In this document: piece after piece, positions 41,423 to 41,917 of the stretch | Layout: every line of letters starts with the position of its first letter | Numbering within the stretch: the stretch's first letter is position 1 | Position numbers and translations under genes: made by a program | The notes under the pieces: model-generated | Told to the model about the DNA's origin: nothing | The model's database searches: none | Seen by the model: only the letters and a program-made list of their open reading frames with translations | Assembly (NCBI RefSeq): GCF_056746865.1 | Contig: NZ_CM163382.1 | DNA length: 64,000 nucleotides | Strand: one strand, 5' to 3'

Positions 41423-41917
41423 TTAACGAACCGTCCATGCAGGGCTGAAATCCTCTTCCTGAAACAGCTCTGTCAGCCCGCTAATCTGTTTCAGCCTCAG
41501 CACTTCATCCTGGTCCATGCCCAACTCTGTGCCAATACGCTCATCTGTCCAGCCCAGACGTGAGAGGTCCCTGACAATGTCAGACATTGACGTTACCTGG
41601 TGTTTTCCCCTGGCACGGTTATGCCGTATGGTTGCGGCAATACGTGATGCCTGTCCCTTTCTCTCTGGATTAATACAGGCCACTGGCAGCCAGCCCTTCA
41701 GACGTTTTCTCGTATCCGCTTTCCTGCCCAGCAACTGACGATGAAAACCATCCACGACCAGATAATGCTCCTTCTCTTCCGAAACCACCACAGGCTGCGT
41801 GAATCCATCCTGCTCCAGTGAATGTTTAAGCAGTTTTTTTTCACTGGAAGACATGACATTGGGATTGTAATCGTTGGCCACCACCTCATCCGCTTTCACC
41901 CACAACACACAATCCAC
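41423..41917 (-). CDS. ParB-like nuclease-domain protein, IbrB-like; no partner gene present
   Basis: 164 aa with ParB/sulfiredoxin-type motif (NPNVMSSSEKKLLKHSLEQDGF, VVDGFHR); IS3 left end starts 25 bp upstream; downstream is IS256 debris. Confidence 0.45.
   Translation of the reverse strand: MDCVLWVKADEVVANDYNPNVMSSSEKKLLKHSLEQDGFTQPVVVSEEKEHYLVVDGFHRQLLGRKADTRKRLKGWLPVACINPERKGQASRIAATIRHNRARGKHQVTSMSDIVRDLSRLGWTDERIGTELGMDQDEVLRLKQISGLTELFQEEDFSPAWTVR

Follow-up and report, generated by a model that had tools for sequence, protein, structure and literature searches.

A truncated ibrB gene beside an IS3-family element, the probable relic of an ibrA-ibrB operon in an Escherichia coli pathogenicity island

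The minus-strand open reading frame at 41423-41917 of the window (the whole 64,000-nucleotide stretch of contig NZ_CM163382.1, assembly GCF_056746865.1, that was analyzed) is, as judged by its homology, the 3′ four-fifths (80%) of an E. coli ibrB gene. With a probability of about 0.93, we regard what survives as a non-functional relic of an ibrA-ibrB operon, left by an IS-mediated adjacent deletion. An undeleted ancestor of the locus is present in strain ECCNB12-2, and relative to this ancestor the window is without 3,031 bp, comprising ibrB codons 1-42, the whole of ibrA (408 aa, intact in ECCNB12-2) and IS debris over ~1.7 kb. A transposase would have produced the deletion, and the ibrB remnant, which would be either not expressed or not functional, is almost certainly dead.

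Extent and surroundings of the ibrB remnant

In the list of open reading frames, the frame begins on the minus strand at GTG 41917, ends in a TAA stop (41423-41425) and encodes 164 aa. These limits are mechanical, and ibrB-homologous DNA reaches 41941: the reading frame upstream of GTG 41917 is open to ~41950, with the residues ...VSPFAQEPVDCVLWVK... in the extended translation, and nucleotide homology to intact ibrB covers window positions 41425-41941 at 98.3%, stopping one base before the left inverted repeat (IRL) of an IS3-family element at 41942. When an intact IbrB was compared with the window by tblastn, residues 43-214 were aligned at 97.7% identity (E = 1e-115). The sequence-only reading had placed an IbrB-like gene at 41423-41917; the frame is real, and its likeness to IbrB is beyond chance, although what it belongs to is a fragment of a gene that extends past the proposed boundary.

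Intact E. coli ibrB alleles have 212-214 codons, and homology over the full length of an E. coli IbrB would accordingly span ~212-214 aa; here it is confined to residues 43-214. Together with the first 42 codons, the remnant lacks the start codon, the ribosome-binding site and the operon promoter. Over its 172 residues, its translation shows 100% identity to the C-terminus of the ECCNB12-2 IbrB and to residues 43-214 of WP_000502867.1, an annotated IbrB-like protein; it is 97.7% identical to the allele of the cobU locus and ~90% identical to the allele of the O157 island. In strain XDL, the identical DNA is annotated by PGAP as a pseudogene, ‘IbrB-like domain-containing protein; incomplete; missing N-terminus’. 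The part that is left is well preserved: the frame is uninterrupted for 172 codons, and the core motifs of the IbrB family (ANDYNPN, DGFHR, RHNRARGKH and ELGMDQDE, the last of these being the helix-turn-helix region), which are invariant in 26-70 homologues, are all found in the translation.

Coordinates of the ibrB remnant and of the elements that surround it in the window
Feature	Position	Strand	Basis or remark
IS66 tnpC C-terminus (ends 40929)	ORF 40657-40929		Pfam DDE_Tnp_IS66 and IS66_C
IS66-family terminal segment	40960-41074		91-94% identity to IS66 ends; truncates the IS256 fragment
IS256-family (ISEc39-like) 5′ fragment	41190-41407	-	74% nucleotide identity to annotated ISEc39 transposase genes
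ibrB remnant	41423-41941	-	Codons 43-214 and TAA stop (41423-41425) of a 214-codon IbrB-like gene
Mechanical ORF	41423-41917	-	164 aa; first in-frame GTG, corresponding to codon 51 of intact ibrB
Deletion junction	41941/41942		Last ibrB base / first IRL base; 2-bp AC (41940-41941) assignable to either side
IS3-family element	41942-45454	+	IRL/IRR, HTH_Tnp_1 on orfA, PGAP transposase calls in XDL
IS3-family IRL	41942-41967	+	TGATCTTACCCAGCAATAGTGGACAC
IS3-family orfA	42004-42303	+	Pfam HTH_Tnp_1
Group II intron	42702-44975 (approximate)	+	Interrupts the IS3-family transposase gene
Reverse-transcriptase/maturase ORF	43359-44600	+	ORF list
ltrA	43374-44882		PGAP in XDL, converted coordinates; marked with an internal stop
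Rfam Intron_gpII (RF00029)	44886-44972		64 bits, E = 3e-11
IS3-family IRR	Inside 45425-45454, ends 45454		20 of 26 terminal bases match IRL

The element on the upstream side of the remnant has the features of the IS3 family, namely terminal inverted repeats that start with TG and an orfA helix-turn-helix protein followed by an orfB DDE transposase. PGAP labels its parts ‘transposase’ or ‘IS3 family transposase’ in XDL, and its identity to further annotated copies of the family is 94-97%. A target-site duplication of 3-4 bp was sought at its ends and none was found, the element being flanked by GAC at its left end and by CTC at its right, as would be expected because the left flank has been replaced through the adjacent deletion. 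A 94-nt inverted repeat (88% identity) connects window positions 42727-42820 with 45455-45548: directly beyond the right inverted repeat (IRR), the DNA repeats, in inverted orientation, the sequence at the 5′ junction of IS3 transposase and group II intron, and the element therefore adjoins part of a further IS3 copy with an intron.

On the downstream side, no more than ~15 bp separate the outer end of the IS256-family fragment from the stop codon of ibrB. The 66-aa ORF at 41183-41383 was not recognized by Pfam as an IS256 transposase, and the fragment was identified by its DNA similarity to ISEc39. This flank is ancestral, since it also adjoins the intact ibrB of ECCNB12-2. The reading frame thus lies between an IS3 left end and IS256 debris, just as had been described from the letters of the DNA.

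Comparison with the undeleted locus and origin of the deletion

The ancestral arrangement was searched for with a chimeric, reconstructed query, in which the IS256 flank of the window and the remnant were joined to the upstream ibrB and ibrA of strain H22. At least 12 genomes, ECCNB12-2 among them, contain a match to the full length of this query at 99.7% identity. In ECCNB12-2, the order is amiC, IS110/IS21/IS66 debris, IS256 debris, intact ibrB, intact ibrA, ~1.7 kb of debris consisting of IS3, reverse-transcriptase and integrase fragments, and then the same IS3-family element as in the window, with its group II intron. In pairwise alignment, positions 11242-12602 of the ECCNB12-2 locus (L090) correspond to window positions 40581-41941, with a single mismatch that lies outside ibrB, and positions 15632-19816 correspond to window positions 41940-46123. 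On its right, the deletion ends at the outermost base of the IRL; past the IRR (CTCCACCG...), the window and ECCNB12-2 have identical sequence.

The two island variants differ in other respects as well. ECCNB12-2 has an extra intact IS66 copy (tnpA-tnpB-tnpC; L090:8543-11241) inside the IS66 tnpC remnant, and this copy is absent from the window, where the equivalent position is ~40588. In addition, the block that follows the IS3 element and intron in ECCNB12-2 (L090 19213-25202), which carries an IS3 fragment, sodC, IS256/IS200/IS110 debris and sitA, is found in the window ~32 kb away and inverted, at 7737-13725, with the breakpoint near window position 46123. The inverted and displaced position of this block indicates that the two variants are separated by an inversion or rearrangement that was mediated by IS elements.

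From these comparisons, the ancestral layout would have been an IS66 end, IS256 debris, ibrB and ibrA (both on the minus strand), ~1.7 kb of IS and reverse-transcriptase debris and the IS3-family element interrupted by a group II intron, and a single event would have removed the stretch abutting the IS3 left end, that is, the debris, all of ibrA and the first 42 codons of ibrB. Bacterial insertion sequences are well known to cause adjacent deletions, the signs of which are an end-point at the IS terminus, retention of the IS and of its other flank, and no target duplication. The IS that has not moved, its unchanged IRR flank and the missing duplication form the pattern that such a deletion predicts. 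Two IS-mediated routes are possible and are indistinguishable here: the left end of the IS may have been transposed intramolecularly into ibrB, or a second copy of the IS may have been inserted into ibrB, with subsequent recombination between both copies. Simple insertion of the IS into ibrB was considered and rejected, because the target is not duplicated and what follows the IS on its right is not ibrB. The proposal that IS activity had broken the pair is therefore borne out by a 3,031-bp deletion that ends at the IS terminus.

A spontaneous illegitimate deletion, in which the IS took no part, would have used the 2-bp AC common to both end-points as microhomology and would have ended at the IS terminus by chance. 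That AC, and the lack of a target duplication that would positively mark transposition, speak for such an event. However, the missing duplication is predicted equally by IS-adjacent deletion, and the right end-point falls exactly on the outermost nucleotide of the IRL with the IS and its right flank untouched, a coincidence with a chance of about one in thousands of positions. We consider an event of this sort highly improbable, and prefer the IS-mediated adjacent deletion.

The junction between ibrB and the IS3-family element was found, 100% identical, in 22 of the 5426 complete E. coli genomes, from chicken, human and kite isolates, while the IS256/ibrB flank is present in 51 genomes, with the intact version in at least 12. 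Because the junction is identical in all 22 genomes and the flank is found in 51, these counts indicate one event, inherited or spread with one island variant. The remnant has accumulated 0 substitutions relative to the intact ECCNB12-2 allele, and on that account the deletion is recent; for want of substitutions, the sequence gives no evidence of relaxed selection either.

The missing IbrA partner and the relatives of IbrB

In three E. coli contexts, the cobU-adjacent locus, the O157 island and the ancestor of the present island, ibrA lies upstream of ibrB with a 16-nt overlap. IbrA is a protein of 407-410 aa with the Pfam domains PAPS_reduct and DUF3440. Among the 5426 complete E. coli genomes, ibrA was found in 2105 and ibrB, by megablast, in 2051, with ‘IbrB-like domain-containing protein’ as the annotation of the segment. 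The pairing extends to viral contigs: at 79 of 80 IMG/VR loci with an IbrB homologue (49-91% identity), an IbrA homologue is adjacent and on the same strand, and at the 80th the contig ends ~600 nt after ibrB. The sequence-only reading had stated that ParB-like proteins of the IbrB type normally occur together with a PAPS-reductase-like IbrA, and had named a ParB subfamily that occurs alone as the finding that would speak against this; the IMG/VR loci and the overlapping genes of E. coli agree with the former and speak against the latter. Two architectures were seen at the IMG/VR loci (L019-L089, e.g. L019:4001-5160), an IbrB of ~215 aa with ibrA upstream and one of ~379 aa with ibrA downstream. 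The ~379-aa form is the commoner among the viral-contig matches and has a C-terminal extension of ~165 aa without a Pfam match.

An adjacent, co-oriented ibrA is present at the ECCNB12-2, cobU and O157 loci and is absent from the window. The possibility of a further ibrA at another place in the window was likewise rejected, the best tblastn match in the whole 64 kb having E = 0.16. It had been claimed that only the ParB-like gene of the pair is present here; this is correct as to the absence of ibrA, with the amendment that the surviving ibrB is itself truncated. The canonical operon of the ancestral locus, ibrA followed by an overlapping ibrB, has thus lost all of its first gene and the beginning of its second.

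The ibrAB pair decays repeatedly in E. coli. For the genome beyond the window, strain XDL was examined as a proxy. In XDL, which carries the identical remnant, an intact ibrA is found at the cobU locus next to an ibrB with a premature stop, Q139* (L009:23809-25670), and in AR_0013 (L002:6628-7840) the ibrA is frameshifted and the adjoining ibrB is intact. XDL also has, in the lambdoid early region of a prophage next to sbcB (L007:13286-14164), a 292-aa ‘PAPS reductase family protein’, which is shorter than IbrA, of a different type, and has no ParB-like neighbor in the annotation.

The relationship of IbrB to ParB was approached with sequence profiles and, as these were not sufficient to establish the ParB label, with structure prediction and a fold search. 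Against the Pfam model ParB_N (PF02195), the remnant scored 20.6 bits and the intact protein 20.0 bits, both below the gathering score of 26.3, and a homologue of the long form (~379 aa) scored 24.7 bits. The remnant matched the NCBIfam model TIGR04285 (noc) with E = 3.5e-5, and Helicobacter pylori Spo0J (PDB 4umk) was matched with E = 2e-3 when a single sequence was used and 2.5e-4 when a 26-sequence profile was used. An AlphaFold2 model of an intact IbrB homologue was built from the 26-sequence alignment (mean pLDDT 77) and compared with the PDB by Foldseek. The best matches were KorB (8qa9), ParB (6sdk and 7bnr) and Noc (7nfu), at E ~3e-7 over ~155-165 columns; KorB, ParB and Noc entries in the list ranged from 3e-7 to 1e-5 at a probability of 1.0, with sulfiredoxin lower at E = 2e-3. 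In this model, IbrB is predicted to consist of two additional helices (residues 7-21 and 26-42) followed by a ParB/Srx N-domain and then a helix-turn-helix domain. From sequence alone the ParB label is consistent but weak, and the predicted fold confirms it; the ParB domain that had been proposed thus falls short of the profile cut-off and is recovered through the fold.

The DGFHR motif of IbrB stands where ParB has its GERR box, within the ParB/Noc/KorB arrangement of a CTP-binding N-domain and a helix-turn-helix. IbrB differs from these proteins in its added two-helix N-terminal segment and from ParB in the missing C-terminal dimerization domain, and whereas ParB has a ParA ATPase as partner, IbrB is coupled to a PP-loop, PAPS-reductase-like enzyme. 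A ParB-superfamily protein paired with a PAPS-reductase or PP-loop protein is also found in DndB/DndC and related pairs, where DndB belongs to the ParB superfamily and DndC, BrxP and SspD are PAPS reductases (PMC12839542). In the PADLOC search, IbrA gave weak partial matches to BrxP (E = 4e-6) and DndC (E = 5.5e-4), and neither the remnant nor intact IbrB matched any model. Unlike the proteins of the Dnd, BREX type 4 and Ssp systems, IbrB matches none of the PADLOC models and IbrA carries DUF3440. The other genes of such a system and model-level matches of both partners, by which membership would be recognized, were not found: no DndA/D/E, BREX or Ssp genes flank the intact ibrAB loci at cobU, O157 or ECCNB12-2. 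Neither the PADLOC search nor the flanking genes gave evidence that links IbrAB to DNA modification or defense.

In the passages of PMC7649339 that refer to Sandt et al., 2002, ibrA and ibrB are defined as genes that enhance expression of the prophage eib (immunoglobulin-binding) genes. Both PMC7649339 and PMC6024878 cite the work of Sandt, Hopper and Hill (2002) on an IbrAB genetic island in ECOR-9. No biochemical mechanism for IbrA or IbrB was found in the literature searched, and a search for DUF3440 gave nothing mechanistic.

Prospects of expression and the island setting

It could be supposed that the remnant works alone, as an N-terminally shortened ParB-like protein started at GTG 41917 or nearby, expressed by read-through from the IS3 side and perhaps acting with an ibrA elsewhere in the genome. 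The open frame of 172 codons does keep the ParB/Srx core in full, and with it the helix-turn-helix region; an AGGAG precedes in-frame GTG and TTG codons; XDL, with its intact ibrA at the cobU locus beside the Q139* allele, would provide such a partner; and the remnant persists in 22 genomes. Against this, the AGGAG stands only 3 nt before GTG 41917, and the translational coupling to ibrA by way of the 16-nt overlap has been lost. A consensus scan detected no sigma-70-like promoter on either strand of 41300-42400, and no promoter-like site within ~480 bp upstream of the remnant.

The lost N-terminal segment, residues 1-42, is present in nearly all homologues; it contains the invariant N34 and H41 and, in the model, both of the predicted N-terminal helices. 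A start at GTG 41917 would further remove P45, F46, E49 and P50. That the deletion is recent accounts for persistence with 0 substitutions. Among the 22 carriers, 13 gave a match at one place only, and thus no second close copy of ibrB, with the junction query, a 120-nt segment used with megablast that could miss alleles of ~86% identity. A stand-alone function is for these reasons very unlikely, and the non-functional operon relic remains the reading that we favor.

With the core motifs and the AGGAG intact, read-through expression of a truncated protein is possible, at a chance that we judge to be very small. Very improbable, too, is the more specific conjecture that the remnant is transcribed from or through the IS3 left end to give a shortened, partner-less ParB-like DNA-binding regulator, which might be dominant-negative or might complement strains of the XDL type.

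As an instance of ordinary gene decay that is already annotated by PGAP, the remnant is of little importance in itself. Its value is as a documented IS-adjacent deletion that destroyed an operon of two genes in an ExPEC/APEC pathogenicity island, with the ancestor available for comparison. Screens of gene presence should not score the ORF at 41423-41917 as an ibrB ‘virulence regulator’, and the ibrB/IS3 junction can serve as a lineage marker for one island variant (22 of 5,426 complete genomes). The IbrA-IbrB pair is widespread, and this broken copy does not address its biochemical role.

The island is an IS-rich E. coli pathogenicity island with iha, sit, amiC and PhoX genes. The cargo of the island and its flanks includes a TonB-dependent siderophore receptor that is cut by the start of the window (35-1846), an Iha-type receptor/adhesin (18810-20897; NF010012, 1539 bits), a PhoX alkaline phosphatase with a TAT signal (46890-48869) and, at the far end of the window, asrA (anaerobic sulfite reductase; 63039-63959).
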